Part shown: in pieces, positions 8,732 to 51,839 of the stretch | Layout: each line of letters begins with the position of its first letter | How positions within the stretch are numbered: the stretch's first letter is position 1 | Assembly (NCBI GenBank): GCA_042408215.1 | Contig: JAYFMW010000020.1 | Location: forward strand, 448,001-512,000 | DNA length: 64,000 nucleotides | Origin: Microcoleus sp. | GTDB taxonomy: Bacteria; Cyanobacteriota; Cyanobacteriia; Cyanobacteriales; Microcoleaceae | Direction of reading: 5' to 3' | Notes under the pieces: model-generated | Told to the model about the DNA's origin: nothing | Seen by the model: the letters and a program-made list of their open reading frames with translations, nothing else | Databases searched by the model: none | Program-made: the position numbers and the translations under genes

Positions 8732-8752
8732 TAACTCACCACTTATATATAT

Positions 8753-9412: not shown

Positions 9413-9420
9413 TCAATCAA

Positions 9421-23537: not shown

Positions 23538-25085
23538 AAGAAATACCCTGAAAACCCTGTGACTTTAGTCCAGGGATGAAAGGGCGTGGCAGGATTTATC
23601 CTGCCTGTTCGTAAGTTTCAATATAACATAATGTTTAACCGTCCCCGGACAAATACTTCTAGCAATTGAGACAAAGGTAAAGATTTGTTTAGGATTAATT
23701 AACTTGTTAATTCACGATATATACTCAACCTAGTATCATAACAGCCAGTAAATTAAATGTACGCAGTACAAAAAGATGTTTGGCGTTTAAAGGGACTCGA
23801 CAAAACCATTGTCGAACAACTACTAAGATGGTCAAATAATCTGTTTAATGTCGGAACCTATGAAAGTCGGCAACAATACTTTAAAAACCAAATCGCAGTT
23901 AAATATCCAGATTTGTATAAAATCACCAAAACCAACGAAAATTATGGGTTGCTATACTCTCAAGTTGCCCAGCAATCTCTTAAATCTGTCGCGGAATCTT
24001 TTACTTCTTTCCGAGCCTTAGAGAAGTTGGCAAATCAAGGAGAAATCCATCAAAAACCGAGACTACCAAGGTACAGAACCAAAGGGGGAATGTACCCTGT
24101 TTCGTATCCCGGTCAAGCCTTAAAGGTAATTGGAAATAAAGTCAGATTACCCCTAGGGAAAAAAGGAAAAGAATACTTTGGGAAAGATGCTATCTGGGTA
24201 AATTTACCGGAAAGACTGAAGAATTGCCAGATTAAAGAGCTTCGACTAATCCCTAGAAATGGTGAGGTCTGGGTCGAATATGTCCACGAATCCCTGACTG
24301 AACAAGCCCCTAGTTGCAGCTTGGAAGTAACAGGGGTTCTGGGCATCGATCACGGCATCAACAACTGGTTAACTTGTGTCTCTAGCAATGGTAAACCTTT
24401 CATCATTGATGGACATAGACTCAAGTCTTGGAACCAATGGTTTAACAAAGAAAAAGCGAGAGTTCAATCAGAACACGCAATACATAAATTGCCCAAAGGT
24501 TTCTCGTCAAAAAGATTACAACAGTTGTCGGAAAATCGCACTAGAAGGATGAGAGATGCTGTCAACAAAGCAGTTAGAACCATCGTATATTATTGCGAAA
24601 ATCACCAAATCAATGTCTTAGTCTTTGGCTGGAACAAGGGACAGAAGCAAGAAGTTAATATGGGGGGAGTGACTAATCAGAATTTTGTCCAAATACCCAC
24701 TGCTAAAGTCAAAGATAGACTACAACAAGAGTGCGACTTAAGGGGATGGCGATTTGTCGAACAAGACGAATCTTACACATCAAAAGCAAGTTTTTTAGAC
24801 CGAGACATTTTGCCAGTAAAAGTCGGTGAAAAACCTGACAATTGGCAACCATCGGGTAAAAGAATCAAAAGAGGATTGTACTGTTCTAGCGCTGGGTTGT
24901 TAATCAATGCAGATGTTAACGGTGCAGCCAATATCATTAGAAAGTCAAAAGTAGCCATAGACTCAATTCTTGAGCGAGTGGGTAGAGGGTTGCTGACTAA
25001 TCCTTTGAGAATTAAACTTTGGGCGGATTCATCCCCCAAAGTTTGTCCTTAAGAATCCCCGTGTCTTTAGACCGGGGAGTGTCAA
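23538..25085 (+). mobile_element. IS200/IS605-family tnpB-only element (IS1341-like)
   Basis: Starts after TTAT; subterminal hairpins CCCTG..CAGGG (left) and CCCCG..CGGGG (right); ends GTGTCAA; boundaries match the two mini copies. Confidence 0.88.
23757..25052 (+). CDS. tnpB: TnpB RNA-guided nuclease
   Basis: GIDHGINN, ESYTSKASFLD, NADVNGAANI motifs. Confidence 0.9.
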   Translation: MYAVQKDVWRLKGLDKTIVEQLLRWSNNLFNVGTYESRQQYFKNQIAVKYPDLYKITKTNENYGLLYSQVAQQSLKSVAESFTSFRALEKLANQGEIHQKPRLPRYRTKGGMYPVSYPGQALKVIGNKVRLPLGKKGKEYFGKDAIWVNLPERLKNCQIKELRLIPRNGEVWVEYVHESLTEQAPSCSLEVTGVLGIDHGINNWLTCVSSNGKPFIIDGHRLKSWNQWFNKEKARVQSEHAIHKLPKGFSSKRLQQLSENRTRRMRDAVNKAVRTIVYYCENHQINVLVFGWNKGQKQEVNMGGVTNQNFVQIPTAKVKDRLQQECDLRGWRFVEQDESYTSKASFLDRDILPVKVGEKPDNWQPSGKRIKRGLYCSSAGLLINADVNGAANIIRKSKVAIDSILERVGRGLLTNPLRIKLWADSSPKVCP

Positions 25086-25147
25086 TAGCCTCTGAGTGCT
25101 TTGTAAGTTTCTGAAGTTATTCTATTTTTAAAGAAATTATCAAAACC

Positions 25148-25795
25148 GTGAAGAAATTAAAGCAGGGCTTGAGTTTTTTATTCGTTACTTTGAGTGTGGC
25201 GATTTTCACGCTTTTGAGCTGGGTATTGGAATCGGGGGAACTTAGACTGTCGGCTGTAGAACCTTCCCTGCTACCGAGTCAAGAGTCTGTTTCTGTGCAA
25301 CGATTTGCTCAAGAATCCGCGCCGCAGCAACTGAGGGCGCAAGATGCGTGGAAATTTGTGTATGAACGATTGCCTGATTTGCCGATCGCCAATAATTACA
25401 TTTCTCAAGAAACTGGAAAAGTAGACCCCAATAATACTTTAGTCGGACGGTTGATTCGATATCATGTGTTTGTCAAAGGACGGCCGCCCAATTATCGCTT
25501 TGATTGGAAGTTGAGTTTAGCTGACTATTTGGGTGCTACTCCTGATTATTTAGTCGAAAGCGTTTATCCCGGTAAGGACGTTTTGCGTGAAAATCCGATG
25601 GAAGGCGATCGGGCTGCGATTCAAAGTTTAAATAGAACTCAGCGGGATGCTTTGGTTCAAGCTTTGGTTGATGTTTTTAGTGGGAATTCCGGGCGATCGC
25701 GCGCGCCGACGACGGGGGGAAAACCAGAAGGGCGATCGAACTCGCCGCAGATACCGCAGCCGCAGCCCGGTGATGCAAAGTTGCTGGCACCCTAA
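25148..25795 (+). CDS. Conserved cyanobacterial exported hypothetical protein
   Basis: N-terminal hydrophobic segment; RLIRYH..VKGR..YRFDWKL motif. Confidence 0.7.
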   Translation: MKKLKQGLSFLFVTLSVAIFTLLSWVLESGELRLSAVEPSLLPSQESVSVQRFAQESAPQQLRAQDAWKFVYERLPDLPIANNYISQETGKVDPNNTLVGRLIRYHVFVKGRPPNYRFDWKLSLADYLGATPDYLVESVYPGKDVLRENPMEGDRAAIQSLNRTQRDALVQALVDVFSGNSGRSRAPTTGGKPEGRSNSPQIPQPQPGDAKLLAP

Positions 25796-26046
25796 GATTT
25801 GGTTTCGGTTAGTTCGCGATCGCACGGGTGGTCAGAAACCGGTTTTTTAGGAGAATACAGGTTACAGCCCCCAGAAACGGGCAAACTACTTCGACACTTC
25901 CGGCGAATCGGAATGATTTAACCTTTCTAGAACGCAGAGAACGCAGAGGGAGATCGGAGAGAGATGAATAATTCCGATGAAGAGAGGATTTGATATCAGT
26001 GATTCACCCAATCTAAAATCCAAAATCTAAAATCTAAAATTGATCG

Positions 26047-26412
26047 ATGGAACGTGTAATTAAGACTGGTGACGGATGGCGTTTGGGATGGCACCCGGAT
26101 GCGACGGAGTTTCAGGGTTTGGTGGGGGGGGATGGTTGGGCGATCGAGCTAACCGAGGCTGAGTTGAACGATTTTTGCCGACTGTTAGCACAGTTAGCCG
26201 CCACCATGAGTCAAATGGCGAGTGAGTTGATGGATGAGGAAAAAATCGCCATTGAAGCCGAAAGCGATTTGCTGTGGGTGCAGGTAGAAGGCTATCCCCA
26301 AGCTTACAGCGTGCAGTTGATCTTGAGTGCTGGTAGGAGGTGCGAGGGTTTTTGGTCGATCGCAGCCGCGCCCGGTTTGGTGCAGGCGACAAAAGTTTTA
26401 AAAGTTTTTTGA
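26047..26412 (+). CDS. DUF1818-family protein
   Basis: GWRLGW...LVGG..WAIELT..E, LMDEE.I motifs. Confidence 0.8.
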   Translation: MERVIKTGDGWRLGWHPDATEFQGLVGGDGWAIELTEAELNDFCRLLAQLAATMSQMASELMDEEKIAIEAESDLLWVQVEGYPQAYSVQLILSAGRRCEGFWSIAAAPGLVQATKVLKVF

Positions 26413-26459
26413 TTTTTTTTTGACTTTTTCCTGAATTGATGATATGCTGTTAAAGCTGT

Positions 26460-26533
26460 CGGGACGTAGCGCAGCTTGGTAGCGCACTACTTTGGGGTAG
26501 TAGGGGTCGCAGGTTCAAATCCTGTCGTTCCGA
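26460..26533 (+). tRNA. tRNA-Pro (anticodon GGG)
   Basis: Acceptor stem CGGGACG/CGTTCCG, D-arm AGCTTGGTAG, anticodon stem CTACT/AGTAG with loop TTGGGGT, GGTTCAAATCC T-arm. Confidence 0.96.
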
Positions 26534-26726
26534 TTCAGGAAACCCGCTCATTGAGCGGGTTTTACTGTTTTTATACGCAAATTGCTTTCTTTTGCGGTTC
26601 TCACTCTTGGGGTGACAGAATATGTCAAACTCAGACATTGAGTGAGATCAAATTGAGATCTGCCCAAAGGCTCTGTAAATGCGGTGCGCTGAGCGTAGTC
26701 GAAGCGTAGTCGAAGCGTAGAAGTTT

Positions 26727-27525
26727 GTGAACTAACCTGACGGTCAACTGGGTACAGTTAGACCGCAGGCTTCTTTTTCCCTTTTTTCAAGGGCTTTTTT
26801 GAGTGACGAAGTTCCCCCGCCACTTGCGGAATTTAGACCAATTATTTTGATAAGTTTGGCTGAATTTTCATCTCGATCCAAAGACTCGCTGCACTGACAA
26901 GAATGCCATCGGTATGATAATTCTTTAGGTACTTTATTGAGGCAATTCCAACAGTGTTGAGAGGTTCCTTTCGGGTCAACGAATAGAACGCTTTTACCTA
27001 ATTTCCAAGCAACGTATTTGAGCGCAACAGCAAATTGACCATGAGCAGCATCAAGCATTGATTTATTCAAACCACTTTTAGCCGCTTGACCATTTAGCAA
27101 ATAAACTAAATTGCCATCCTCAATGCCAGTCTTGACCTGAGCGCGTCTAGTTAGATTCTTGAGCCTCAAATCTTCAACAACTAATATCGTTTCCGGTTGC
27201 ATCGGAATGATACCGAGTGACAAGACAGTCGTGTCCCTACCCCATTAATTGTAGGGACACGACTGTCTTGTCACTCCGTTTAGATCATTCCGATGAAGAG
27301 AGGATTTAATATAAAACGTCACACTTGCCGAATAAGTTATGTGCTGCCTTGAATTGGAAATCTAGTCGGGATCTAGCTACAAATTGATGAAGTTTAGAAA
27401 TCTTACCCTTGATAATTTTCCAAGGCTTAGATCCCTTAACTCTATCAGCTAGTTTCGCTTGAAGTCTTGCTAATTTCTCGGCAGATTTCCTCAAAAATCT
27501 AGGGTTTTCGATTCGTTCCCCACCT
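26727..27525 (-). pseudogene. tnpB: 5'-truncated tnpB interrupted by a MITE
   Basis: IENPRF...CDVL|VVEDL...KSGLNKSMLDAA...CWNC...DRDENSA; right end GTTCAC at about 26727. Confidence 0.85.
27185..27311. mobile_element. Palindromic MITE flanked by a TAA/TTA duplication
   Basis: Removing it restores tnpB CDVLVVEDL; internal GTGACAAGACAGTCGTGTCCCTAC/GTAGGGACACGACTGTCTTGTCAC palindrome; relative at about 25905-25995. Confidence 0.8.
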
Positions 27526-27650
27526 GTTGGTGAGCGGCATAAGTGGTGGATTTTTGTTTCGAGTCGGCCCGCATTGAACAAGCCAAACTCGATTGGACAG
27601 AGGGACGGTTTGGTCAGGTTCCTCAAGAGACAGAATTTATCCCAGAATAG
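27526..27650 (+). pseudogene. Pirin-family C-terminal remnant
   Basis: GERHKWWIFVSS, then after a frameshift IEQAKLDWTEGRFGQVPQETEFIP. Confidence 0.65.
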
Positions 27651-27960
27651 CCCCAGCAATCTAACAGGACTTATAGCCTTTCTCAGGTAGATGAGATACG
27701 ATGTAACTAATTTGAACGGAGTGCAAAATATTGAACGCCTCAAGGTCACACAGCTCTAATTCAATGGAGGGATCGCGCGCCCCGATCGCTCATGCGCCAT
27801 CGGCTCACAGTCATTGAGCTGCTCACAGGAGTCGATCGCTCACATCTATCAATGATTGCAGAAAGCATCATACATTACTAAAAATGAAATCTTATTCTGT
27901 TGACTATGGTTATGGAATGATGCAGTCTCATAGACGACAAAGTAAATTATAAAGAATCGC

Positions 27961-28359
27961 TCAATCAACAAATTCAGAACCCAGACTCCAGTTCAAAATT
28001 CCAGCTACTTGAATCGGTAAAGTCATTGCATTAAATGGCTTAGCAAGCACACCCGCAATCCCGAAGGCTTGCAGTTGATGCGACAAAAAGCTTTTGGCTT
28101 TTGCCGTAATGAAGATAACTGGAATGGATGCACTAAATGGGTCTTTTTTAAGTTTTTGAATAAAATTTATCCCATCCGTTTCTAAGTTGGGTGTATCTAG
28201 AAGAATGGCATCCACACGCTCAATAGACAGCTTTTTTAAGCCTGCTTGGATAGAAGCAACGGATATAATCTGCCAACCACCAAAACTGCTTAAACAAATC
28301 TGCAAAACTTCTCGAACAGAAGTCTCATGGTCAATGAGCAAAATCTGCTTATGAGACAT
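27961..28359 (-). CDS. Single-domain response regulator (atypical acidic pocket)
   Basis: ILLIDHE, ILLD, FITAK, KPF. Confidence 0.8.
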   Translation of the reverse strand: MSHKQILLIDHETSVREVLQICLSSFGGWQIISVASIQAGLKKLSIERVDAILLDTPNLETDGINFIQKLKKDPFSASIPVIFITAKAKSFLSHQLQAFGIAGVLAKPFNAMTLPIQVAGILNWSLGSEFVD

Positions 28360-28447
28360 AAAATAAACCGCTTCAACCCTAGAGCTTTTAAAAGATAGCC
28401 TAGAAATATAAGAAATTGATGAGAACAATGTAGCTTCAAGAGAGTCT

Positions 28448-28825
28448 CTAAACGCTCCACCCTAAAAATTGAGCCACCTGTTTCCAAACTTGTCTTGAAT
28501 TGAACGGCTTAATAATCACTCCGGCTACCCCCATTGCAGCAAAGCGACGACGATCGCTAGGCAATGCTTTAGCCGTCAGCAAAACAACTGGAATCATCTG
28601 AGTTTTTAGATCGGCTTGCAGATGCTCAAAGCACTCGAACCCGTCCATATCGGGCATTGAAATATCGAGAATGATGGCATCAAAGGGTTCTGCCTTCGCT
28701 TTGAGCAAACCTTCGCTGCCAGACTCGGCCTTCATCACTTGCCAACCACCAAAGCCTTCGAGGGACATCTGTATCACGTCTCGAATGTCCGCTTCATCAT
28801 CAATCACCAGGATGTGTTTCGTCAT
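28448..28825 (-). CDS. CheY-like single-domain response regulator
   Basis: ILVIDDE, IILDISMPDMDG, LLTAK, KPF. Confidence 0.92.
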   Translation of the reverse strand: MTKHILVIDDEADIRDVIQMSLEGFGGWQVMKAESGSEGLLKAKAEPFDAIILDISMPDMDGFECFEHLQADLKTQMIPVVLLTAKALPSDRRRFAAMGVAGVIIKPFNSRQVWKQVAQFLGWSV

Positions 28826-28852
28826 AATACTGCCCTTTTTTTGTCAAATCTC

Positions 28853-29914
28853 CTAAGTTGATGGTGTCGGGGGGAGCGCTATCTCTTGCTTCAAATCAGC
28901 TAGCAGTTGTGAGAAGCGGGCCGCTTGCCGTTCTTCTAGCAATGAATTGTTTTTGAGGAGATGTTCGATCGAACGAGCAATCTTCGATCCTTTCGGGTAA
29001 CCAAACGTTCCCAGTCCACCTACTAACTTATGCGCTTCTTCTCTGGCATTCTCTTGTTGTTCTGGACTCAAATCATGTGTCTGTAGCGCGAATTTCATTT
29101 CCTCCAAGACTCTAACCCTCGACTCTAAGGACAGTCTAAATCGCTCTTCCACAGCATCCACTGAAGCTAACACTGTTTCGTGCGTTTGAGTTTCCTTCTC
29201 CTCTTTGCTCTCCTGTACCTCTGCGCTCTTTTCGACCGTCGGTGCTGCCTTCAAACGATATCCTAACCCATGAATTGTCTCAATCACTTCTTCAGTAATT
29301 CCTGCTGCTTTTAGCCGAATTCGCAGGTCTTTGATCAAAGTTGTTACGGCTGCCTCCGAAGGCGATTGGTCGATCGACCAAAGCCGATCGATAATGGCAG
29401 TGCGGCTAAAAATGCGCTGAGGATGTCGCAGAAATAGTTCGAGCAGAGTGTACTCTTTGGGTCTAAAGGTGATTTCCTGCTGCTTATAGGTTACTTGCAT
29501 CAAGGTAGGATCTAAACACAAATACCCCCAACTCAAGACGGGAGCAGTAGCACTATCCCCACGACGCAATAATGCCCGTATCCGTGCCAAGAGTTGATTG
29601 GGATTAAATGGTTTGATGACATAATCGTCTGCTCCAGCATCCAACCCTGCGATCGCATCCTCATTGGAATTTTGAGCAGTGAGCATCAGAATCGGAGTCC
29701 AATTGCCTTGGGAGCGCAGTTGACGACAGAGGCTAATTCCATCCAGTTTGGGAATTAATACATCGAGCAAAATCAGATCGTAATCCCACTGCATTAAGAA
29801 CTCCAATGCCAATTGTCCATCGCTCGCTAAATCGACGGCATAGCGATGGGTAGTGAGATTCGCCCAGAGAAGCGCTGCGATTGCTCGATCATCCTCAACT
29901 AATAGAATTTTCAT
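28853..29914 (-). CDS. OmpR-family response regulator with C-terminal Hpt domain
   Basis: Receiver domain, winged helix (IETIHGLGYRL), EAHKLVGGLGTFG Hpt motif. Confidence 0.9.
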   Translation of the reverse strand: MKILLVEDDRAIAALLWANLTTHRYAVDLASDGQLALEFLMQWDYDLILLDVLIPKLDGISLCRQLRSQGNWTPILMLTAQNSNEDAIAGLDAGADDYVIKPFNPNQLLARIRALLRRGDSATAPVLSWGYLCLDPTLMQVTYKQQEITFRPKEYTLLELFLRHPQRIFSRTAIIDRLWSIDQSPSEAAVTTLIKDLRIRLKAAGITEEVIETIHGLGYRLKAAPTVEKSAEVQESKEEKETQTHETVLASVDAVEERFRLSLESRVRVLEEMKFALQTHDLSPEQQENAREEAHKLVGGLGTFGYPKGSKIARSIEHLLKNNSLLEERQAARFSQLLADLKQEIALPPTPST

Positions 29915-30006
29915 CGGTTAAGCTGCTACGCAGCTAAATTTAATCACCAGAATCTTCTGGTATCCCGGCAATTATACAGTATCCCTGACCGAACGTCAGG
30001 GGGTTA

Positions 30007-30294
30007 TTGCCATCAGTCCTGGGCCTAAAGGCGTGAGGATTCTTAAGATATTTCGGTCTTAATATCCCTATTGCGCTTAGTTCCCTGGCTGACCACGTTT
30101 GCACGTTACGTGCGTAGTCATATCGACCTAGTGAATGTTTTGGGCGTAGACTTTCCCCCAGTCCGGGGGTAGGTTTTTAAATCTTGTCTGATGTGCTTAT
30201 TCTACCATATTCATTTGTTGAGATAGATGTGTTACATTACTTAACAATGGAAAAAGCCGTCCTAAAAGGGCGGGGTTTTAAACCCAATTTTCTG
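30007..30294 (-). mobile_element. Protein-free IS200/IS605 mini-element (family C) with putative omegaRNA
   Basis: Minus strand TTAT|CAGAAAATTGGG...CCCCGCCCTTTTAGGACGG left end; degenerate right end AAGAATCCTCACGCCTTTAGGC...TGGCAA. Confidence 0.65.
30199..30207 (-). promoter_or_regulatory. Extended -10 promoter candidate TGGTAGAAT in mini-element C
   Basis: TGn-TAGAAT match upstream of the structured region. Confidence 0.45.
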
Positions 30295-30535
30295 ATAAAA
30301 AATCGCCTAAATACCTGTGCTATTGTCAGGATGAGAACGACTAGAAGAATTTTGCCGATCGGGAAGCCTGAAAAATCGATATTGATAGTTTTTAGCGTAT
30401 CTAAAATGGGTTCCATGATGAGTTGGTCTCCTTGTATATGGTTGATAGGCGATCGCGTAGTTGGCTGTAGGCGATCGCGCTATTCAGTTACTTACTGGAT
30501 TGAGTCAGATGAAATTAGAGGAAATCTTATCGGTT

Positions 30536-32458: not shown

Positions 32459-32998
32459 TTTTTATCATTCCCTGATGGATGATTTTCCAATCATTTTGGT
32501 TTCTGATGCGTGTAGATGGGTTTTCCTGTAAGGAATAAAGCGATCGGTAAACCCGATCGCTTAGTGAAATGCTTTATGTATAAAGAATCTCAGTCCTCAG
32601 TCCCCAAAATCAGGGTTTTCCACTACAAGTACGAGAGAGCAATGATATGAAATTGAATCATGAGTGCTACAGATGATCCCCGCTCACCTCCCTTAGCAAA
32701 GAGGGGAATGTGTAGCTAATATGTCGGGATTTCAGATTACACATCACAAACTAATGTGGTTAGCAGTGGTGTGAAAACTGGTGTAAACCAGGCTTTTTTA
32801 GCCAATTTCCCCGAAAAATAGATGAATTGTTGCAGACATTAAGCAAATTATATGGCTACTTGAGGAGAATAAAGATTCCAAAATTCCAACTTTTGCGCGT
32901 CTCAATAAACGCCACTAGACCGTGTATAATGCCATTTATCTGTTCAAAGCTCCCTCAAGCTACGTCTCAGACGATTTTACTCAACCTAACGCCAATCT

Positions 32999-37586: not shown

Positions 37587-37629
37587 GATGGCAATTTTTG
37601 TTTTTCAATGGGTTGGAATACTAATCAGA

Positions 37630-37790: not shown

Positions 37791-37883
37791 ATCGCATAAA
37801 TTAAGTCGTCATCTTGAGTATTTTGGTAAAATTTGTTGGCATCCATTCACAGGCAAGAATTCATTCTTGCCGTAAATGGATGC

Positions 37884-41416: not shown

Positions 41417-42493
41417 TCACGATGCCGCCAAACGCGATAAATTAATTGCGGCATTCAAATCTCTGTCTATCGAATGACCGCAACTTCCACAGTTGTAGGT
41501 TCTTTCTTTTAGGGACATATCTTGGATCTGCCCACAGCTTGAACAGGTTTTGCTTGACGGAAACCAGCGACTAGCCATGATTATTTCACAGCCAAACTTT
41601 TTCGCTTTATACTCTAACTGACGCTTGAATTCGTAAAAGCCACAGTCCGCTATAACTTGAGCGAGTTTGTGATTTGACAGCATCCCGGAAACATTTAAAT
41701 CTTCTACTACTATTTTTGCGTGGTTTTTACATAAGTAGGTAGTGATTTGATGCAGAGTATCCTTTCTGAGACTCGCCACCTTAGCGTGATGTTTTGCTAG
41801 CTTGGTTTTGGCTTTATACCTATTACTAGAGCCTTGAGTCTTTCTTGACAACTCCTTTGACAGCCTACGCAACTTACTGAGATGCGTTTTGTAATGTCTT
41901 GGATTAGCAAAAACAACTCCTGTTGAAAGCGTTGCTAATTCCTTAACCCCTAAATCAACTCCCACAACATCCTGTTGCTTTACAGTTGGTTCATGTTCTT
42001 GTTCGTAAGCAAAAGCCATAAACCAACTGTCAGCAGTTCGAGATATCGTGATTGACTTGCAGGTGGTGTGAGGCAATCCCTCATAGGTTTTCACCCAGCC
42101 GATTGTTGGCAACTTTATGGACGTACCTCCCACGGCTATAGGCTTACCACCTGCATCAATCGTGAAGGAATCATGATGCCCTTTCTTCTTAAACTTGGGG
42201 TATCCACTTTTCTTTGAGAAGAAACGAGAGAAAGAATCCCCTAGATTGTCAAAGGCATATTGGGTGATTTTTGGGCAGATACCAGCCTCTTTAATCCACG
42301 TAAACTCAGGTTTTACATGATTATTAAAGAATTTCTTGAGGAGGTATTTATTTGGCTTCAATCCATCTCGATCAAGGTTACTCCAAGTAGCTAATCCCCA
42401 ATTATAAGTAAACCTTGCTATTCCAGCGTGCTTGCTCATTATTGTGGCTTGACTCTTGCTTAGCTTTAGCTTTGTTTTGATGGACAGAAGCAT
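41417..42493 (-). CDS. tnpB: TnpB of an IS607-type element
   Basis: GVDLGV, VVEDLNV, CSSCG...CGSCG, DRDLNAAINL all intact. Confidence 0.92.
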   Translation of the reverse strand: MLLSIKTKLKLSKSQATIMSKHAGIARFTYNWGLATWSNLDRDGLKPNKYLLKKFFNNHVKPEFTWIKEAGICPKITQYAFDNLGDSFSRFFSKKSGYPKFKKKGHHDSFTIDAGGKPIAVGGTSIKLPTIGWVKTYEGLPHTTCKSITISRTADSWFMAFAYEQEHEPTVKQQDVVGVDLGVKELATLSTGVVFANPRHYKTHLSKLRRLSKELSRKTQGSSNRYKAKTKLAKHHAKVASLRKDTLHQITTYLCKNHAKIVVEDLNVSGMLSNHKLAQVIADCGFYEFKRQLEYKAKKFGCEIIMASRWFPSSKTCSSCGQIQDMSLKERTYNCGSCGHSIDRDLNAAINLSRLAAS

Positions 42494-42502
42494 TGTTCGA
42501 CC

Positions 42503-42712
42503 TCAACACTGGATTTCTATGTTCAATTCTGCCACGTCTTGTACGGGTTTGTCAATAGCCTTTTTTCGGTGCTCCTTGATTTCTTTGGAGTAATTTCGTA
42601 GACCGTACAACCGACAAGAAAAATAATGGATGATTGCCATTAAATCCTCTACTAATTCATGTTGGGGAGATAGTGACTCTTGATTGGCGACTGCGATCTC
42701 ACATCCGACTTT
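42503..42712 (-). pseudogene. IS607 serine recombinase TnpA, C-terminal fragment
   Basis: QESLSPQHELVEDLMAIIHYFSCRLYGLR directly upstream of tnpB. Confidence 0.8.
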
Positions 42713-42769
42713 TGAACATGGTACAGGTCAGAGGTTTGCCCAGGATTGTACTACTTTGTTTATTTATTT

Positions 42770-42940
42770 GCTAGCTAGGTACTAGCTCACTGATTGCTGT
42801 CCACTTCGATCGGACAAATAACCGACTGTCCCAACTGCTCCCACCAATTGCAACATAAATGGAACCGTCAGCAATACTCGGAGCGGAATGTTTGCCAAGC
42901 CCTGATAGCCGCGTCGAAGTAAACTTGCTCTTTGTGTCAT
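42770..42940 (-). pseudogene. N-terminal remnant of a membrane sensor (Cache-type kinase/cyclase)
   Basis: IPLRVLLTVPFMLQLVGAVGTVGYLS..SGQQSV, truncated. Confidence 0.6.
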
Positions 42941-43165
42941 ATACCAATCGTGACATACTCCCACACTGAGTGAGTACACAGAGCCTGTGGGCTTCTTTGT
43001 AGTCCTCCACCAGGGTATACAAAATTTCCTGCTGGTACGCTCATCCATAGTTCCTACTACAGAAAGATTCCCAATGGGCGCGTTTTATACTGGGGAAAAT
43101 GTCCAACCCCAGTCTTTTTAAGTTAATCGCGGCATTGAGATCGCGGTCAACCATCAAAGAGTTAT

Positions 43166-43460
43166 AAGAAATACCCTGAAAACCCTGCGACTTTAGTCCA
43201 GGGATGAAAGGGCGTTGCAGGATTTATCCAGCCTGCCCCATCTTGACAAACCGATTTTGGTTTGATCGAGTTGTTGAAACCTAGTTGGTGAAAAACCCGA
43301 CAGTTGCAAGCCGTTAGGCACCAAAGTAGCCATAGACTCAGCAACTCGCTGTGTGGGTAGCGGGTATCTGACTTACCCTTTAAGAACCGAAGTTTGGGTG
43401 GATTCATCCCCCAAAGTTTGTCCTTAAGAATCCCCGCGTCTTCAGACCGGGGAGTGTCAA
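43166..43460 (+). mobile_element. Protein-free mini-element (family A, 295 bp) with omegaRNA scaffold
   Basis: Ends match IS 23538-25085; follows TTAT; excision restores the host tnpB frame IRDYWDEYNSLMVDRD. Confidence 0.9.
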
Positions 43461-43484
43461 ACTCATCCCAATAATCTCGAATAC

Positions 43485-43658
43485 TATAGCCTTTCTCAGT
43501 AGCATGAGCTACTCTCGGATATAGGGCATAATCAATTACGAATTAATCAATTACGAATTACGAATTTAGCACTTCAAAAAGTCAACTCGTAACTCGTAAT
43601 TCGTAATTCGTAATTATTTACCCTTGGGCATACCTCACCAAGATTGAGAACTGCTATA
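43485..43658. mobile_element. MITE (TAGC..TTCTCA family) with TA duplication and (AATTACG)n interior
   Basis: Removing it with one TA restores tnpB IIFTDCSIRDY. Confidence 0.8.
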
Positions 43659-44530
43659 CAATCGGTGAAAATAATCTCATTCCGATAACTGAGTATCATT
43701 AAGGTGTCAGCAGGTTTTTGTGAAATGACAACTGCGACCGCTTGTTCGGCTATGTAGTCCAGCGTCTGAAAAAAATGACCAAAAGCAGCATCTAGCCAAG
43801 ACTTATTCAGTCCTGATTTAGCTGATTGACCATTTGGGATATAAGTACCATCATCCTCTTGTTTAACTTTATTCCGTTTAGTCAATCCTTTGAGATTAAG
43901 GTCTTCATCGAAAAAAAAAAATAGCTCCAGTTTTGACCAATTTGTGAGCGGTTTTATATTGAAAGTATTGACGAAAACGAGCAATCTGTTGATGTTTTAT
44001 TGCTTCTTTTTTCGCCAATGTACGTCTAGATTTAGAGCCACACGTTTATTCCGCTTCTTTGAAATGCGTTCAAGCTGAGCTTAATTTTTGCGTAATGGCT
44101 TCAGGAAAGAAAGTTTCTCACCTTCAGACGTTGCGAGATAGACATCTTCGTGTAACACTGCATCCAAACCGATTGATTTATCCCATGTTGGGACAATTTG
44201 ATCGGGAATAAATTCAGGCACAGATGCATCTTCAAGCATTAACTGAATAAACCAGCAATCTGCTTTTCTGGTGACACTAGCTTGTTTAATAGTAAATCCA
44301 TCTGGGATTGGGCGATGTTTCCGAACTTTGACAACTCCTAGTTTCGGGAATCAAATATATAGCCAATTTTTGCGTATTAGTTTAATCCAATCATTGCTAG
44401 CAGTCGCAAAAGTCATTGTTCGGTAGTCCGCTTCAGTTTTCAAGCGAGGTATACCAGACTTTCCACCATTGATATCTCCTCTAATAAACCGCTCAAATGC
44501 TTTATCTACTCGCTTATAAACATCCTGTAA

Positions 44531-44694
44531 TACCAATTTAATGTGAAGTTGCATATATCTCGATCCCCCTAAATCCCCCTTAATAAGGGAGTAGGGTGTG
44601 AGTAGGGGGTGACGAAAGAGCAGAATCTTGTTCCCCCCTTATTAAGGGGGGTTAGGGGGGATCAGATTCTATGCAGCCTCATAAAAAACTGGTA
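44531..44694. mobile_element. MITE with GC-rich palindromic core, TAA duplication
   Basis: TACCAATTT/AAACTGGTA termini; removal restores TILQDV. Confidence 0.75.
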
Positions 44695-44729
44695 TAAAAT
44701 AGTTTAGTCTACTTGCTTAAAATCCAACA

Positions 44730-44838
44730 TACAGCAGTTCCCGCTGTTATGAAACACGGTAGGGACACTCCAAGAGCCATGTCCCTAGGAGGATTGAACG
44801 ATAAGTGGGTGTACCTCATAACAGCGGTTTCCGCTGTA
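44730..44838. mobile_element. MITE with TA duplication
   Basis: TACAGCAGTTCCCGCTGTTATGA / TCATAACAGCGGTTTCCGCTGTA inverted termini inside the tnpB pseudogene. Confidence 0.75.
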
Positions 44839-45167
44839 TCACCACTAGGTCAGACTTTCAATAAGTCTTTTTTAAGAATTGGCTGTTGTTGTTTCTATAA
44901 ATAGTAGTTAGGTTTTTACCAGGGAGGCGAAATGCTAGTTATCAATGGACAAGCATTCACAGCGGTGCGATTCATCTCCCACCAATCACAGCGCTCTCCT
45001 AACTGGCGATTATACCAATAACGGCAAATTCTGAGCCATTGGTTGAGGGTGATTTTATGATTGGTGTCTGGATAGAATCGGTACTGATATGTTCTCTTCA
45101 TTGCGTTACAACCTCTACACCTCAGTTGGTGTTACTATAAAAAAGCACAAGATTCTGTGTCAAGTAA

Positions 45168-45580
45168 ATGAGTTCATATTTGATCCTTAAAGCTAGAGGG
45201 GTTTCCGATATCAAATGTCATTTAATGTTGACTACTAAGTATCGACATAAAGTTATTACAGATTTAATACTGGCAAGGCTTGAGGAGATTTTTTAAGAAT
45301 TTAATGGCCAAATGGGAAGGAAGATTAGTAGAATTCAATGGCGAACGCGACCACGTACATTTGTTACTTCAGTACACACCGCAAACTGAGCGAAGCCAAG
45401 CTTATTAACAATCTTAAAACTGTATCTAGTCGAGCTTTACGGAAAGAGTTTGTGGCTGAGGTTAATCAGGTGTATTGGAAAGATATTTTTTGGACAAATG
45501 GTTATTTTATTGCTTCTTGTGGCGTGACTGTCGAGCAATTGAAGAAGTATATCGAAGAACAAGATCGACCTGTTGAATAA
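45168..45580 (+). pseudogene. tnpA: IS200-type TnpA (Y1 HUH) pseudogene
   Basis: HLMLTTKYR, DHVHLL, LKTVSSR, FWTNGYF, YIEEQ spread over frames with an internal stop. Confidence 0.82.
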
Positions 45581-45833
45581 GGAGTTTGTGGCGCACGCTC
45601 AGCTTCGCGGCGCACGCTCAGCTTCGCGGCGCACGCTCGCGAAGTCGAAGGGCTCGTCTCGTCATCCACCTGTTCATTGCTCGAAGCTCTGCTTCTGAGG
45701 TTATGAACAGGTGGAATCCTCGCCTCACGCGCCTTTCATCCCACACTAACCGAGGCGGTATAGTGTGGGGATTCCCGTCTGTTTAGCTAAAAGATCGATC
45801 GACTTTCCACAAAAACAAAAGTCTATAACAAAG

Positions 45834-45948
45834 TATAGCCTTTCTCAGTAACAGTGCGGTACTCTCGGATCTAGGGCATAGGGCATAGGGCATAGGGCAT
45901 AGCGCATAGGGCATAGGGCATACCTCACCAAGATTGAGAACTGCTATA
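45834..45948. mobile_element. MITE (TAGC..TTCTCA family) with (AGGGCAT)n interior
   Basis: Same termini as 15095-15209 and 43485-43658. Confidence 0.78.
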
Positions 45949-45950
45949 TG

Positions 45951-46721
45951 TTAAATTTCCGACTTCTGTCCTTCCGACTCCTGCGTTACAGGTTCTGAAT
46001 CTGGCTGCTTGAGAGCAACTTCCGAGGAATTTGGCTCAGCGAGCAATTCAGGATTACGTTGAGAAAATCCCCAGACAAATATTATGGCTATGCTGGAAAC
46101 CACCAGCCATTGCGGCGGAACTAAATTGTCATTAATCACTTTCACCAGCAGTCGCAAGCCCACCAACCCGACGGTGACGTAGCCAGCATCTTCCAGGTGA
46201 ACGAATTCGTCTAGCCAGCGGATGAACAATCCAGCCATAAATCGCAGGGTGATAATTCCGATTGTCGCGCCCGTCAGGACGAGCCAAGTTTGATCGGAAA
46301 TCGCGATCGCCGTAGTAACGCTATCCAAAGAAAACGCTAAATCTGTTAGAGCAAGCACCGGAATTGCTTGCCATAGAGACGAAAATCGCGGCCCGTGATG
46401 TTCTCCTTCCGAGTCAGCATCTGATGAAAAATGCTGGAAAACTAGCCACAGCAGGTAGAGAGCTCCTAGCAGTTCAAACTGCCAGTATTGGATCACCCAA
46501 GTAGCAGTTAAAATTAATGCGATCCGCAGTACAAAAGCAATTGCCAAACCGAAGTTGAGAGCCTGTTGCTGTAGCTTGGCATCTTCCAAACCTTTAGAAA
46601 TAGATGCCAGGGCGATCGCATTGTCTGCCGAAAGAACAGCCTCCAAAGCCACCAAAACCAACAATAATAAAAAGGCATCTACTCCCAAACTGGGCGAAGC
46701 GTCGAGAAATTGATCTAGCAT
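45951..46721 (-). CDS. TerC-family membrane protein
   Basis: LEAVLSADNA, DLAFSLDSV motifs. Confidence 0.92.
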   Translation of the reverse strand: MLDQFLDASPSLGVDAFLLLLVLVALEAVLSADNAIALASISKGLEDAKLQQQALNFGLAIAFVLRIALILTATWVIQYWQFELLGALYLLWLVFQHFSSDADSEGEHHGPRFSSLWQAIPVLALTDLAFSLDSVTTAIAISDQTWLVLTGATIGIITLRFMAGLFIRWLDEFVHLEDAGYVTVGLVGLRLLVKVINDNLVPPQWLVVSSIAIIFVWGFSQRNPELLAEPNSSEVALKQPDSEPVTQESEGQKSEI

Positions 46722-46746
46722 TAACTATTTTGTGTACCTAAGATTT

Positions 46747-47072
46747 TTGACATACTCACCGACTATCAGGTGCGATGGTAGGCGCGTGCGTAGTCGAACT
46801 ATGATTCTTGACACTTCATCGAAATCTGCTACCGAAGTAGTCCTACGTTTCCTCTGTGTCCGTTTAGAGTCGTGCTGATGCCCCATGCCTACTTTTTGAG
46901 TTGCTTCTAGGTTAGATTCAACTATTGCCCTTACAGCGGACTCTAAGTTTACTCTCAACCTAGGTGTTTCAACGCTTCGACTACGCGAGCGCGCACCGCA
47001 GATATTGAGTCAGAGAGACCACCATTATAGCAAGCCGTCCTAAAACTACGGGGTTTTCAACCCAATTTTCTG
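46747..47072 (-). mobile_element. Protein-free mini-element (family B, 326 bp) with omegaRNA scaffold
   Basis: TTAT|CAGAAAATTGGG left end; 3' part aligns with the end of tnpB 48550-49746 (GGGCAT..CACGACTCTAAA..GATGAAG.GTCAAGAATCA..CGGTGAGTATGTCAA). Confidence 0.85.
47024..47032 (-). promoter_or_regulatory. Consensus extended -10 promoter TGCTATAAT in mini-element B
   Basis: Perfect TGn-TATAAT directly after the left-end hairpin. Confidence 0.55.
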
Positions 47073-47160
47073 ATAAATTGAAGAGATCAGCACAAATCAC
47101 CGGCTCTGTCGAAAATTAGTGTCACCTCACTGATCTTAACCTAAAGTGGCCATTCTGTCC

Positions 47161-47343
47161 GAAGGAACAAGGAACAAGGAAGAGGGAACAAGGAAGAGGG
47201 AACAAGGAACAAGGAACAAGGAAGAGGGAACAAGGAACAGGGAAGAAGGAAGAAGGAACAGGGAAGACTTTCCCGATTCTCCCCCTCTTCCACTCTCCCC
47301 CTCTCTCCCCCACTCCCCCACTCCCCCTCTCCCCCACTCCCCC
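47161..47343. repeat. STRR tracts (GGAACAA/GGAAGAG)n and CCCCACTC-like
   Basis: Direct tandem repeats upstream of psaM. Confidence 0.85.
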
Positions 47344-47441
47344 GCCCAGAAGTGTTGCAAGTTGTAACAAATGATTCCCAAAAGCGCCAATTTGTCTGAA
47401 ATTGGTGAAAGATCGTGCCAGTGAAAAGGAGTTTTCCGAAT

Positions 47442-47537
47442 ATGTCTTTAACAGATACCCAAGTCTACGTAGCGCTCGTAATTGCTTTGATTCCCGGAAT
47501 CTTGGCTTTCCGGCTGTCAACTGAACTGTACAAATAG
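47442..47537 (+). CDS. psaM: Photosystem I subunit XII (below the ORF-track cutoff)
   Basis: [40 protein letters not shown]. Confidence 0.95.
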
Positions 47538-48100
47538 TTGAGGACACCAGATTGCAACGGTAAAGCGCCCTCCGAGCGCAGTTGAATCTTGAGATTGCAG
47601 ACAATTGCTCCGGCAGTGGAGTAAATTGTTGGTTGTCAGCAAGACGAGACTGCAAGGGTTGAATTCCGTTGACAATTTATCTATATTTACCTAGAATTTA
47701 AATACCGAATTCTAGGTAAATCCGTGGACAAATTGATCGGCATTGGTGAATTAGCGGAACTTAAAGCTGTCAGTGTAGACACGATCCGACGATGGGAGAA
47801 GGAAGGCAAGATCCAATCCGTTCGTACAGATGGTGGACACAGACGGTATCGTATTTCAGACTTTGTTGAACAAAAAGTTGGAAAGACGATCGCTTACGCC
47901 AGAGTATCTAGTCATGACCAAAAAGCAGACCTTGACAGACAAGATGCCGTCTTGTCTGGGTACTGCCAGTCTTTTGGTTGGGATTATGAGGTGATCCGAG
48001 ATTTAGGTAGTGGTATGAATTACCACAAAAAAGGACTCACCAAGCTAATATCTACTATTCTAGACGGTGACCAAGAAAATGGGATACAAGCCCCGTCCTT

Positions 48101-48508
48101 CTAGGACGGCTTTTCGTGATTTCTAATGTACTCCTTTAAGACTTCTAGGGGCGCACCACCCACGGAAACTGCAAAATAACTAGGACTCCACAAAGCCTCT
48201 TTATGGGGTTTCTTGTATCCAGCCTGTCCGTAGCGACGACTAGAAACTCCTTTCAAGGCGTTCACGATTTGAGAAATTGAAAGTTTAGGAGGATACTCAA
48301 TCAGCGTGTGAACGTGATTATCTTCACCATTGAATTCAAGAATTTGGAAATTCATTTTTTTAGCAACCTCGCGAAACGTTTTTCCAATCAAATCAATACT
48401 TTCGCCAGTGAATACAGACCGACGATATTTTGTAACACAGACCAAGTGCATCTTAAGTTCTGTAACACTATGCCTTTCCCTGCGATAAACGGTTGTCATT
48501 TTTTGCAA
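48101..48508 (-). CDS. tnpA: IS200/IS605 TnpA (Y1 HUH transposase)
   Basis: HLVCVTKYRR, NHVH, LKGVSSR, LWSPSYF, EYIRNH. Confidence 0.93.
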   Translation of the reverse strand: MQKMTTVYRRERHSVTELKMHLVCVTKYRRSVFTGESIDLIGKTFREVAKKMNFQILEFNGEDNHVHTLIEYPPKLSISQIVNALKGVSSRRYGQAGYKKPHKEALWSPSYFAVSVGGAPLEVLKEYIRNHEKPS

Positions 48509-48549
48509 ACCAAGAGATGATTTAGTAACAGACCAATTTTAGCACAGCC

Positions 48550-49737
48550 ATGAAAGCCAGATATCGCTACAGGGTTTACCCAACTGACCAACAGCAGCAG
48601 AGCCTAGCTCAGTTGTTTGGTTGTGCGCGGGTAGTTTGGAACGATGCTCTTGCGTTGTGCAAGCAGTCCGAGAAAAAGCCAAGTTCGGCAGAACTTCAAA
48701 AAATAGTAATTACTCAGGCTAAAAATACTGAAGAAAGAGCTTGGTTAGGAGAAGTGTCGTGTATTCCCTTGCAACAATCGGTTGCCGATTTAGATGTTGC
48801 TTTCAAGAATTTTTTCAACTCCTGTAAAGGAAAGAGAAAGGGACGTAAAGTCGGATATCCTAAATTCAAGAAAAGAACTAGCAGTCAATCAGCACGTTTT
48901 AGGATTGGAGGGTTTTCTTTTAAAGATGATGGTATTTATTTAGCTAAGATTGGAGTTCTTGACCCGATTTGGTCGAGGGAGTTACCATCCGAACCTAGTT
49001 CTGTTACAGTAATTAAAGATTGTGCTAATCGCTATTTCTTGAGTTTTGTCGTAGAGGTTAAACCAATTCAGGTTGAGGCTAAAAACCCAATCGTCGGAAT
49101 CGACTTAGGAATCCAAACTTTTGCAGTGATGAGCAATGGGGAGAAAGCCGAAAGTCCTAGCTATAAAAAACTAGACCGGAAAGTTCGTAAACTCCAACGC
49201 AAATTAGCACGTCAACCTCATGATTCTAGGAGAAGGAATGTAACTCGCATCAAAATCGCCAAGTTGCACAATCAAATCACCGATACTCGCAAAGACTTTC
49301 TGCACAAATTGTCAACCAAAATAGTCAACGAAAACCAAGTGATTGTTTTGGAAGATTTAAACGTGTCTGGCCTGGTCAAAAACCGCAAACTTGCTAGAGC
49401 AATTAGCCAGCAAGGTTGGAGGGAGTTCAGGACTTTGTGCGAAGCTAAGTCTGAAAAATTTCGTAGGGAATTTAAGGTAATCAGTCGATGGGAACCCACT
49501 AGCCAAATCTGCTCAGATTGTGGTTTCAAGTGGGGCAAAATTGATTTATCTATTCGCTCAGTGCTTTGCTTAAGTTGCGGTACTGAGCAAGATAGAGATG
49601 AAAACGCTGCTAAAAATATAGCTCAAGTCGGGATAGGGCATTGCCACGACTCTAAATGGGCGCAGAGACAGAGTAAGACTACTCCGGTAGCATCAGTCGA
49701 TGAAGCGTCAAGAATCACCGCACTTTTAGGGCGGTGA
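48550..49737 (+). CDS. tnpB: TnpB RNA-guided nuclease
   Basis: GIDLG, LEDLNV, CSDCG...CLSCG, DRDENAAKNI. Confidence 0.93.
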   Translation: MKARYRYRVYPTDQQQQSLAQLFGCARVVWNDALALCKQSEKKPSSAELQKIVITQAKNTEERAWLGEVSCIPLQQSVADLDVAFKNFFNSCKGKRKGRKVGYPKFKKRTSSQSARFRIGGFSFKDDGIYLAKIGVLDPIWSRELPSEPSSVTVIKDCANRYFLSFVVEVKPIQVEAKNPIVGIDLGIQTFAVMSNGEKAESPSYKKLDRKVRKLQRKLARQPHDSRRRNVTRIKIAKLHNQITDTRKDFLHKLSTKIVNENQVIVLEDLNVSGLVKNRKLARAISQQGWREFRTLCEAKSEKFRREFKVISRWEPTSQICSDCGFKWGKIDLSIRSVLCLSCGTEQDRDENAAKNIAQVGIGHCHDSKWAQRQSKTTPVASVDEASRITALLGR

Positions 49738-50034
49738 GTATGTCAAATAATCCGACTCGCGATCACTCACAAGGATAGACTACTCAGATTTGGCTCAGAA
49801 CTGGTTTTTGCAATCTGCGAATACCACGGGGTCGAAGTTGTCATCCTGAACAAAAAAGAGGACGCAAATTTTGAAGAAGAATTAGCGAGTGACGTTTTGG
49901 AGATGATCGCCGTGTTCTCTGCAAGATTATACGGCGACCGATCAAATAAAAATAAAAAACTTATCCAAAACCTGGCAGATTCTGTAGAAAATAGATAATA
50001 TCTAGATATCTCAGCACATTGAGAGGTCGAATCA

Positions 50035-50910
50035 ATGGCTACCATAACTTATTGCAAAGGCTTACCCACACCAGCCCATGAGCTTAACGAGTTAGGTTTG
50101 ACAGATTTCGAGATGTTTCTAGATGCTTACGCCCCTATTTTTATGGCTGCAAATATCGAAACAGTCAATCATTTGCTTTCAGGCGTAGAATTCAAAAAAT
50201 CCCAGTGCAATACCCATTTACAGCAGACATACCGCATTAACAAACGTCACGCTAATGGCGCGATCAGTTCTGCTAAAGGTCGAGTAGACGGGAATAAAGA
50301 ACACAGAGCCTTGCATTTGAAAACCATTGAAGGGAAGATTAAGTCTATCGGTGCGTGGCTAAAGAAAGCAGAGCGCAAACTGGTATTGGCTCGTAAATTC
50401 TCTGCCAATAAGAAATGGCAGCAATCAAAAAAAGGCTGCAACTTCCCGATCTATTGCTCACTTACGTACAAATCTACAAACTGGCAGAATTTACGCTTTC
50501 AAATTCACAAGAAAAAGCGTAAATTTGCACGTTTGACCAACAAAGTAGAACAGTTAAAAGTTAAGCATATCAACGCTTCAGTACCTCACGCTGATGTTTT
50601 TGTTGTTGGTTATAAAGACGAGTCTTACGGTAATCATGTCTGTCAATGGGATGGAAGTAAAATTACTTTCCGTGTCCCTAATTGTTGAGAATCACGGTTT
50701 GGCAAAACCATCTCCTCTGAGATTGGTGATTTCAATCGGAACATCCACCGATTACCAGTATACTGTGCTAAAAATTGGCATTTTTATCGTAAAAAGGGTA
50801 AATGGGTTGCTGCTGTACAGTTCACAGCCCTGTGAAGCAAGTTTCTAGAGAGCGGGTATAGGGCTGCATTGGTATTGATATGAACCCTGGTTCTTTAGGT
50901 TGGGCTTGGT
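50035..50910 (+). pseudogene. IS607-associated TnpB-like accessory gene, disrupted
   Basis: Follows IS607 tnpA; reading continues past TGA 50688 to GCIGIDMNPGSLGWA (RuvC-I-like), then truncated. Confidence 0.7.
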
Positions 50911-50949
50911 TAAATATCTAAGAATTTATGGACTGGCTAGTGATGAAGC

Positions 50950-51839
50950 GGCATCGTTTAAGAAGCTCGATCGTCAAGTTCGCAAACTGCAACGCAAGTT
51001 AGCACGTCAACCTAAAGACTCAAAGCGCAGAAACAAAACTCGGATTCAAATTGCCAAGCTGCAAAAACGAATTTCAGACACCCGTAAAGACTTCTTGCAC
51101 AAACTATCTACCCAAGTCGTTAGTGAAAACCAATCTCTCGTCTTAGAAGACTTAAATGTGTCAGGAATGGTGAAGAATCGCAAGCTTGCTAGAGCAATCA
51201 GCTTGCAAGGATGGAGAGAGTTTAGAACGCTGTGTGAGGCTAAATCCGAGAAACTTGGTAGAGATTTTCACGTCATTAATCGATGGGAGCCTACAAGCCA
51301 GATTTGTTCTGAGTGTGGCTTTGACACTCCCCGGTCTGAAGACGCGGGGATTCTTAAGGACAAACTTTGGGGGATGAATCCACCCAAACTTCGGTTCTTA
51401 AAGGGTAAGTCAGATACCCGCTACCCACACAGCGAGTTGCTGAGTCTATGGCTACTTTGGTGCCTAACGGCTTGCAACTGTCGGGTTTTTCACCAACTAG
51501 GTTTCAACAACTCGATCAAACCAAAATCGGTTTGTCAAGATGGGGCAGGCTGGATAAATCCTGCAACGCCCTTTCATCCCTGGACTAAAGTCGCAGGGTT
51601 TTCAGGGTATTTCTTATAAGTGGGGTAAGCTCGATCTAAAAGTTCGGTCGGTTCGATGCCTGAACTGTGGCACTGAACAGGACCGAGACGAGAATGCAGC
51701 GAAGAATATCCACAAAGTCGGGATAGGGCATACCCACGACTCGCTTCAGGACGCAGAGACAGAGTAAGACTGCTTCGGCAGCATCAGTCAATGAAGCGTC
51801 AAGAATCACCGTGGCGTTGACTCCCGGTGAGTATGTCAA
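50950..51839 (+). pseudogene. tnpB: 5'-truncated tnpB (paralog of 48550) with right end, interrupted by mini-element A
   Basis: KKLDRQVRKLQRKL...CSECG|YKWGKLD...DRDENAAKNI; ends GTATGTCAA. Confidence 0.88.
51321..51615 (-). mobile_element. Protein-free mini-element family A, second copy (295 bp)
   Basis: Reverse complement of 43166-43460, appears identical; follows TTAT; excision restores TGT GGC TAT AAG TGG. Confidence 0.92.

Follow-up and report, generated by a model that had tools for sequence, protein, structure and literature searches.

Four short protein-free elements lie in the 64,000-nucleotide (nt) stretch of Microcoleus DNA analyzed here (the window, G000:C20:448001-512000, part of a genome of 7.36 Mb in 30 contigs that we call G000). 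They are genuine nonautonomous IS200/IS605 elements of the palindrome-associated transposable element (PATE) type, a kind that is already known, and are referred to below as minis A1, A2, B, and C (Table 1). Our best reading, which follows the proposal of Meers et al. (2023), is that these elements are doubly parasitic and that their RNA directs a borrowed TnpB to the scar left by their own excision. From this analysis it seems probable that the scaffold-bearing minis borrow both TnpA and TnpB and use the guide RNA for retention at that scar. About 90 minis, belonging to many tnpB families, are found in this one genome; two of the four copies in the window look decayed, and family A is active now.

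Ends, mobility, and genome-wide census

Throughout, coordinates without a contig prefix are window positions, C1, C20, and so on are contigs of G000, and G and L labels stand for genomes and loci of relatives. A preliminary description of this DNA, made from its sequence alone, had reported four elements lacking tnpA and tnpB open reading frames (ORFs) and preceded by TTAT. No such ORF was present in any of the four, and the TTAT was borne out in every case. The IS605-type left ends also described are carried by B and C, and that of A1 is nearly the same as the left end of a full tnpB-only element in the window (Table 1). A1, A2, and B have subterminal hairpins as in IS605 elements and no terminal inverted repeats, and C is without a right terminus. 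The boundary assigned to C at 30007 had to be abandoned, given that C matches its siblings only to 30017 and its terminal GTGTCAA has been replaced.

A genome-wide BLAST search for copies and flanks of family A gave 109 matches, 30 of them near full length, including 16 copies of family A itself (91 to 100% identity) and 14 of a sister family, A' (ca. 76%). All 30 stand behind TTAT and, as the background frequency of this tetranucleotide is 0.004 per site, the pattern is not due to chance. A1 and A2 are 100% identical over their 295 nt. The exact ends of A1 are given by a contig of RNA run X1 that joins position 43165 to 43461 without duplication and those of B by genome G017, where its flanks are joined (L194), while the site of a metagenomic mini A copy (L145) is empty in G000. 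Insertion is thus 3' of a fixed tetranucleotide and without target duplication, as in PATEs. The RNA data consisted of assembled contigs from four runs (X1 to X4, from four studies) among 18 RNA runs; such contigs give no information on strand, start, or level and could come from DNA, the element flanks are uncovered in X2 to X4, and depth is unusable for expression. Within these limits, mini-specific sequence, including the mini-only middle, was present in contigs of all four runs.

Family A was detected by exact pattern in 3 of 79 genomes of the genus and at 18 metagenome loci, and no A-type mini was found among the viral contigs scanned. At one of those 18 loci (L132), a standard 295-nt mini A sits between flanks that hold a full 1,548-nt element in G000 (C27:61253-62800), so that recombination through the ends may have exchanged the two, or the same site may have been hit twice. 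Another locus (L141), in which the left flank of one copy is combined with the right flank of A2, was left out because it may be misassembled. The tnpB remnant into which A2 itself is inserted reads in frame from one half to the other across the insertion site and has later stops as well.

In order to delimit minis over the whole genome, profiles of left and right ends were run over G000 and the ends were paired. In this census, a few nested pairs were counted twice, and mini B is absent because of the 26-nt insertion in its right-end hairpin. Among the 192 end pairs obtained, 90 span at most 600 nt, 4 span 601 to 1,199 nt, 92 span 1,200 to 1,700 nt, and 6 are longer; no pair of 41 to 179 nt was found in G000. 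Over half of the pairs below 700 nt (51 of 93) match a tnpB 3' end over 114 to 163 nt from the right end, none of them over more. These BLAST matches span minis of six tnpB clusters, and in a seventh, ca. 180 nt are retained by alignment. The smallest minis (180 to 186 nt) comprise a left end, a box of the TGn-TAnAAT type, a few bases, and a scaffold of 122 to 125 nt. In five families (A, A', that of C, and two others with different middles), a -10-like box, recognized with a hand-made score, ends 188 to 197 nt before the right end. There are also long minis (430 to 570 nt; for example, C17:393782, C14:19855, and C5:500272) with a TnpB-like 3' core and extra GNRA-rich hairpins, in which the -10 box lies ca. 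340 to 365 nt before the right end; Rfam did not recognize them, and G000 holds no tnpB that could be their close parent. The element G000:C7:189259-188813 (L117) holds an antisense HEARO (IscB-type) RNA between TnpB-type left and right ends. Rfam gave no match on the four window elements and a single one, HEARO, on 20 further loci.

Proteins that could serve such elements abound in G000, with at least 150 matches to the TnpB family (253 candidates, 150 of them scored), 159 near-full tnpB frames grouped in 48 clusters, and 20 matches to Y1 transposases, 13 of them near full length. The closest relatives of the window TnpB (up to ca. 90% identity) come from Microcoleus, Kamptonema, and Tychonema, which marks the source as a filamentous cyanobacterium.

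Scaffolds, promoter-like boxes, and partner proteins

The preliminary description held that families A and B retain the last ca. 120 to 140 nt of two tnpB elements in the window. This was correct for family A (138 nt, 84% identity) and not for family B, in which the similarity is 78% and covers 93 nt only. From the 80 full-element loci related to family A, we took 35 tails for alignment, leaving out undelimitable tails and close duplicates. Conservation begins directly after the RuvC-III motif, even at 41 to 51% protein identity, and the part retained by A and A' begins at that same boundary. The pseudoknot between a hairpin loop and the last bases of the element is paired in 99.3% of cells in the 35 tails, with one pair that swaps (C-G in 24, U-A in 7, A-U in 1). 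None of 500 shuffles scored as high overall, for pairs that were named by hand and with the proviso that kinship can beat shuffles. Naming by hand was necessary because RNAalifold found no structure in the 35-tail alignment, owing to gap columns. A covariance model built from the full tails alone (R1) matched A1 and A2 over its positions 1 to 126 (90.8 bits, versus 113.6 for the full element). Along the same lines, among 14 distinct A and 13 distinct A' scaffolds, every pair was kept in the pseudoknot (56/56 and 52/52, respectively), in its hairpin (70/70 and 65/65), and in the stem base (84/84 and 78/78), and one double change from U-A to A-U in the pseudoknot hairpin, a single event, is fixed in A. 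Judged from these comparisons, mini A keeps the whole conserved part of the predicted omegaRNA scaffold. The earlier statement that the elements are mobile, protein free, and keep this scaffold beyond the transposase ends is therefore supported by the ends, the empty sites, and the covariance match.

C-type sequences are far more widespread, with matches in 51 of the 79 genomes at an E value of 1e-20, partial matches included. The set analyzed comprised 28 scaffolds, 26 from 50 loci plus 2 from G000, the remaining loci being near duplicates or undelimited by the pattern. Pairing was preserved in 95.6% of cells, compared to 93.1% in shuffles (0/500 as high) and 35 to 48% in slid controls. The -10 box is fixed 7 to 8 nt before the scaffold while the sequence ahead of it varies. 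In the window copy, the terminal bases have been replaced, as in the G008 orthologue, where the -10 box is still kept, and the pseudoknot partner is missing. With its right terminus lost, C is an immobile relic of a genus-widespread family, old and probably idle; no empty C site appeared among the listed matches of the 79 genomes. In relatives (L239 to L242, L243, L246, and L247), a C-type scaffold with its -10 box has no visible left end and shares its right flank in several genomes. This fixed locus, which has no motif-adjacent target at ≤2 mismatches in five genomes, is a candidate for domestication. Among full tnpB elements, the one nearest to family C (G000:C6:580219-578644, L127) is flanked on its right by the interior of a C-related mini.

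Mini B is likewise old, damaged, and probably idle. Its 5' module has five significant sites in G000, all in minis and none near a tnpB, and in 10 sequences from relatives it is conserved, with 3 doubly changed pairs out of 21; an intact copy lies at C30:248779. As partner of B, the tnpB at 48550-49737 was discarded because it follows TGAC rather than TTAT and three of the four other members of its family score higher; the only one of the five members behind TTAT is another gene (C30:318306).

The "short internal segment" of the preliminary description is present, but it is not plain filler, since promoter-like boxes and extra RNA structure lie inside it. In family A, the 47 nt between the left end and the piece retained from within tnpB are found only in minis. 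The sigma-70 consensus is the yardstick for the -35 and -10 elements in this segment. At the -10 position, the 16 copies read TAAAGT (nine), TCAAGT (two), or TCGAGT (five, including A1 and A2), and a scan for consensus promoters and terminators over 43100-43600 recovered neither in A1. A good promoter is thus not required of recently moved copies, given the degenerate boxes of recent A copies.

The shared TnpB partner postulated for family A does exist as intact genes. Of 26 copies (23 behind TTAT and 3 one base off), 22 exceed 400 amino acids (aa) and have all three motifs with the predicted catalytic residues. At RuvC-II, glycine stands in place of the glutamate, and another glutamate further downstream could substitute for it (RIIr-like). 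We judged from this motif only that the protein resembles the rearranged RIIr-5 group, to which it may belong and which is predicted to be active (PMC10691335). As for TnpA, A-type copies are polymorphic, full-length Y1 matches exist in G000, and two autonomous elements have left-end hairpins similar to those of A; the first candidates for the enzyme that would serve A-type ends are at C1:21234 and C20:33421.

We also scanned silent sites in 25 TnpB homologues less than 80% identical, drawn from 41, over 272 columns. Conservation clustered at codons 352 to 362 and from codon 397, where the core begins, and the isolated codons 230, 261, and 374 also scored high. The segment of codons 352 to 362 folds as a 5-bp hairpin, and it is this piece that mini A retains. 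Among 24 distinct versions, its outer pair is U-A in 11, G-C in 5, A-U in 2, U-G in 1, and unpaired in 5, and the swaps alter amino acids too. An essential role of this hairpin in the RNA was rejected, as A' minis are without it.

Table 1 Coordinates of the elements and their parts within the window
Feature	Position	Strand	Description
Full tnpB-only (IS1341-type) family A element	23538..25085	+	tnpB 23757-25052, 431 aa; behind TTAT
Hairpin inside tnpB	24821..24844	+	codons ca. 355-362, V-G-E-K-P-D; silent-site conservation; piece kept by mini A
Conserved omegaRNA core of full element (predicted)	24948..25085	+	begins directly after RuvC-III motif
Mini C	30017..30294	-	left end, TGGTAGAAT box (30207-30199), ca. 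180-nt scaffold from 30191; right terminus lost
Mini A1	43166..43460	+	295 nt; family A (16 copies); empty site known
A1 left end	43166..43235	+	96% identity to left end of full element
A1 promoter-like site	43243..43271	+	TTGACA, 17 nt, then -10 TCGAGT (degenerate) in A1 and A2
A1 retained in-gene hairpin	43283..43306	+	21/24 nt match to 24821-24844
A1 complete omegaRNA core (predicted)	43323..43460	+	pseudoknot loop, right-end hairpin, terminal TCAA; model R1 1-126, 90.8 bits
A1 predicted guide	43461..43476	+	host flank; only close motif-adjacent match is its own empty site
Mini B	46747..47072	-	326 nt, present once in G000; left end, TGCTATAAT box (47032-47024), 5' module, ca. 123-nt scaffold from 46894
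B insertion			26 nt inside right-end hairpin; B ends 25 nt upstream of terC gene
B 5' RNA module (putative)	46895..46980	-	found only in minis; most consensus pairs broken in window copy
Autonomous IS605 element	48072..49746	+	tnpA 48101-48508 (-, Y1), tnpB 48550-49737 (+); behind TGAC; left end type as in B and C
Mini A2	51321..51615	-	identical to A1; at TTAT inside already broken tnpB remnant 50900-51838 (+)

Guides and the explanations considered

Each insertion would gain a new guide, as had been proposed, this being the right flank of the insertion site. None of the guides of the 34 minis with A-type left ends had a 12-nt seed match beside TTAT in G000, compared with 0/31 for full elements and 1/102 for control flanks. 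When all 70 minis with a clear motif and terminus were considered, a single one (C28:258261) had a motif-adjacent seed match. As there were no other targets, the natural target of each guide would be its own empty site. The viral scan covered the A1 and A2 guides, leaving out those of B and C and control 20-mers. Motif plus 16 nt of A1 matched three contigs, all in one phage gene family with no similarity to G000 beyond 20 nt, and motif plus 14 nt of A2 matched one contig, through one 18-mer in a radA-like frame; we read both as chance. A near match of A2 in another tnpB (C6:411318) was dismissed because of a mismatch at seed position 2. Two distinct minis, C28:258261-257876 and C23:21527-21708, interrupt A' copies at one and the same internal site, where they acquire a guide that matches 14 intact A' copies next to TTAT.

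According to the retention scheme that we favor, a Y1 TnpA made elsewhere would move the minis by peel-and-paste into TTAT, without duplication, and the internal promoter would yield an RNA made of the TnpB scaffold plus the first 16 to 20 nt of host flank. This RNA would be loaded by a TnpB from the matching family, which would cut the TTAT-plus-flank junction left by excision, after which recombination repair from the sister chromosome would bring the element back. Selection would then act on the element, not on the host. Scar cutting as a means of retention is taken over from PMC10055086 and 10.1101/2022.10.12.511977; for the minis, transcription, loading in trans, cutting, and retention are predicted steps.

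Several observations weigh against this scheme. There is no tnpA beside any A-type left end in G000, and 42 of the 93 minis match a tnpB over less than 110 nt or have no BLAST match to any tnpB in the genome, being mostly long and without a close parent. Seven of the 16 A copies (A1, A2, and five others) are without the consensus A of the -10 box, and in 11 of the 14 A' copies the box is weak and ends in G. Within the family A scaffold, the first inner hairpin is poorly kept (A, 32/70; A', 51/65), and the long stem contains mismatches (paired in 124/140 and 118/130, respectively). The C-type structure was drawn by eye from the same sequences that were scored, and it has only 6 pairs changed on both sides (reached by 22/500 shuffles), 3 of them outside the right-end hairpin. 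In G008 and G005, which carry B orthologues at the same site, a tnpB-bearing insertion and a deletion have disrupted the scaffold. Lastly, the guide of the nested mini C28:258261 has 14 perfect TTAT-adjacent sites in A' copies that nevertheless persist; by its scaffold, this mini is nearest to a TnpB family found mostly behind TTAC, a possible reason for the tolerance.

Some of these points would also be expected if the minis were neutral deletion remnants, in which the scaffold is kept by descent from a few deletions, the ends alone matter, and the RNA is unused. The youngest A copies have degenerate -10 boxes, B and C are damaged, self-matching guides are tolerated, and family A, found by exact pattern in so few genomes of the genus, may be young. 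We nonetheless consider this origin unlikely, as the retained length clusters at 114 to 163 nt across six tnpB clusters (ca. 180 nt in the seventh), no ends-only minis were detected, structure is kept in the genus-wide C-type family, and the position of the -10 box is constant while the preceding sequence changes. Even less credit can be given to the minis acting mainly through a decoy RNA, made and bound by TnpB, that titrates the ca. 150 TnpB copies or as portable promoters for neighboring genes. The abundance of tnpB-family matches would suit a decoy. As for promoters, B ends 25 nt before terC and C ca. 100 nt before a response regulator gene, each on the same strand, so that the promoters of these old shared insertions point into host genes, and in G008 the -10 box of C has outlasted the loss of its terminus. 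However, orientation shows no bias over the genome (of 59 minis, 13 are sense, 19 antisense, and 27 have no ORF within 500 nt), and a decoy needs no transposable right end beside the guide.

The dispersed guide library put forward in the preliminary description would, as a role useful to the host, mean that minis are kept because they guide shared TnpB proteins to phages, plasmids, or the cell's own genes. There are indeed dozens of distinct guides with intact scaffolds, several relatives share the fixed C-type copy that shows no left end, with one common flank, and a repertoire was suggested for Fanzor ghost loci (PMC10432273). But the guides are host flank by construction, only 0/34 (controls, 1/102) and 1/70 have a 12-nt seed match beside the motif, the viral matches are of the chance type, sites are polymorphic between strains, and the shared B copies are decaying, so that we regard such a library as highly improbable. 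A more novel reading is one that we put forward as no better than tentative. The minis would be single-guide genes that have evolved promoters of their own, and from them the true RNA of each TnpB clade could be read; that of the rearranged-RuvC clade A would be two-part (the hairpin of codons 352 to 362 plus the 138-nt core, fused in mini A to 180 nt), B-type minis would have gained a 5' module, and mini families would compete for TnpB, nested ones aiming at their rivals.

Window context and comparison with known systems

Transposon debris is frequent elsewhere in the window. A second tnpB type (41417-42493, minus strand) has remnants upstream, with decayed transposon pieces across 41417-43030; a fragmented Y1 transposase gives three partial matches at 45200-45562; and broken frames fill 49767-50700, between the IS605 element and the tnpB remnant holding A2. 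Tandem arrays are found at 8752-9462, 21606-22128, and 58390-58659 (units of 79, ca. 175, and 90 nt), along with many 7-nt tandem repeats, and a 1,334-aa restriction-modification-like protein with Eco57I/N6 methylase domains (56420-60424) has a short-repeat array within its frame.

The general idea is not new, because the PATE type and its use in trans have already been proposed in print (PMC10055086, PMC10691335, and PMC10432273). In the literature consulted, mostly open-access main texts, we found these cyanobacterial families described nowhere, nor any account of promoters fixed in position, of the hairpin within tnpB, or of the 5' module (Extended Data Fig. 2e of Meers et al. may bear on promoters). 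With ca. 90 minis of many TnpB families in one genome, freeloading on TnpB for retention becomes testable, and the deletion points of the minis are natural minimal guide scaffolds for uncharacterized cyanobacterial TnpB clades. If the in-gene hairpin is a true part of the RNA or of its processing, it would be relevant to codon-optimizing these nucleases.

The nearest precedent is the work of Meers et al. (PMC10055086), whose main text presents the model of retention by scar cutting and states that PATEs often encode omegaRNAs needing TnpB in trans. The PATE-like elements of Geobacillus stearothermophilus reported there similarly lack a coding gene and have ends in common with tnpB elements. 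That set is given as "several," compared with ca. 90 here in one genome, where many tnpB families are represented, -10 boxes hold a fixed position, and extra RNA parts occur on the 5' side, although its figures or supplement may show promoters. The PATEs of Haloquadratum walsbyi (PMC3119063) share the subterminal palindromes, the absence of terminal inverted repeats and of target duplication, and the strain-specific insertions; small repeats target the palindrome interior, as in B, and HqIRS71 keeps a tnpB 3' segment. That archive of elements includes 52-bp ends-only PATEs, whereas here none below 180 nt were found.

Mobile RNA loci without an effector, which is encoded elsewhere in the genome, are also known as the standalone omegaRNAs of OMEGA systems (summarized in PMC10691335), for which function in trans was shown, while for the present ones it is predicted. 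In Spizellomyces punctatus, 134 protein-less Fanzor ghost loci have a conserved omegaRNA whose scaffolds work with the protein, and a guide repertoire was suggested; they differ in being eukaryotic, with inverted-repeat ends and no Y1 transposase (PMC10432273). Regarding the RNA itself, TnpB trims its own omegaRNA, with processed lengths of 79 to 466 nt (PMC10278001). The omegaRNA of ISDra2 TnpB has a core of ca. 116 nt, a terminal pseudoknot, and a dispensable 5' part (PMC10097598), comparable to the 122 to 130 nt kept by B-type minis and to the scaffolds of the smallest minis in G000. Compared to that RNA, the predicted scaffold of family A, which is part of a rearranged-RuvC clade, has another order of folds and a separate conserved hairpin ca. 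105 nt upstream of the core.

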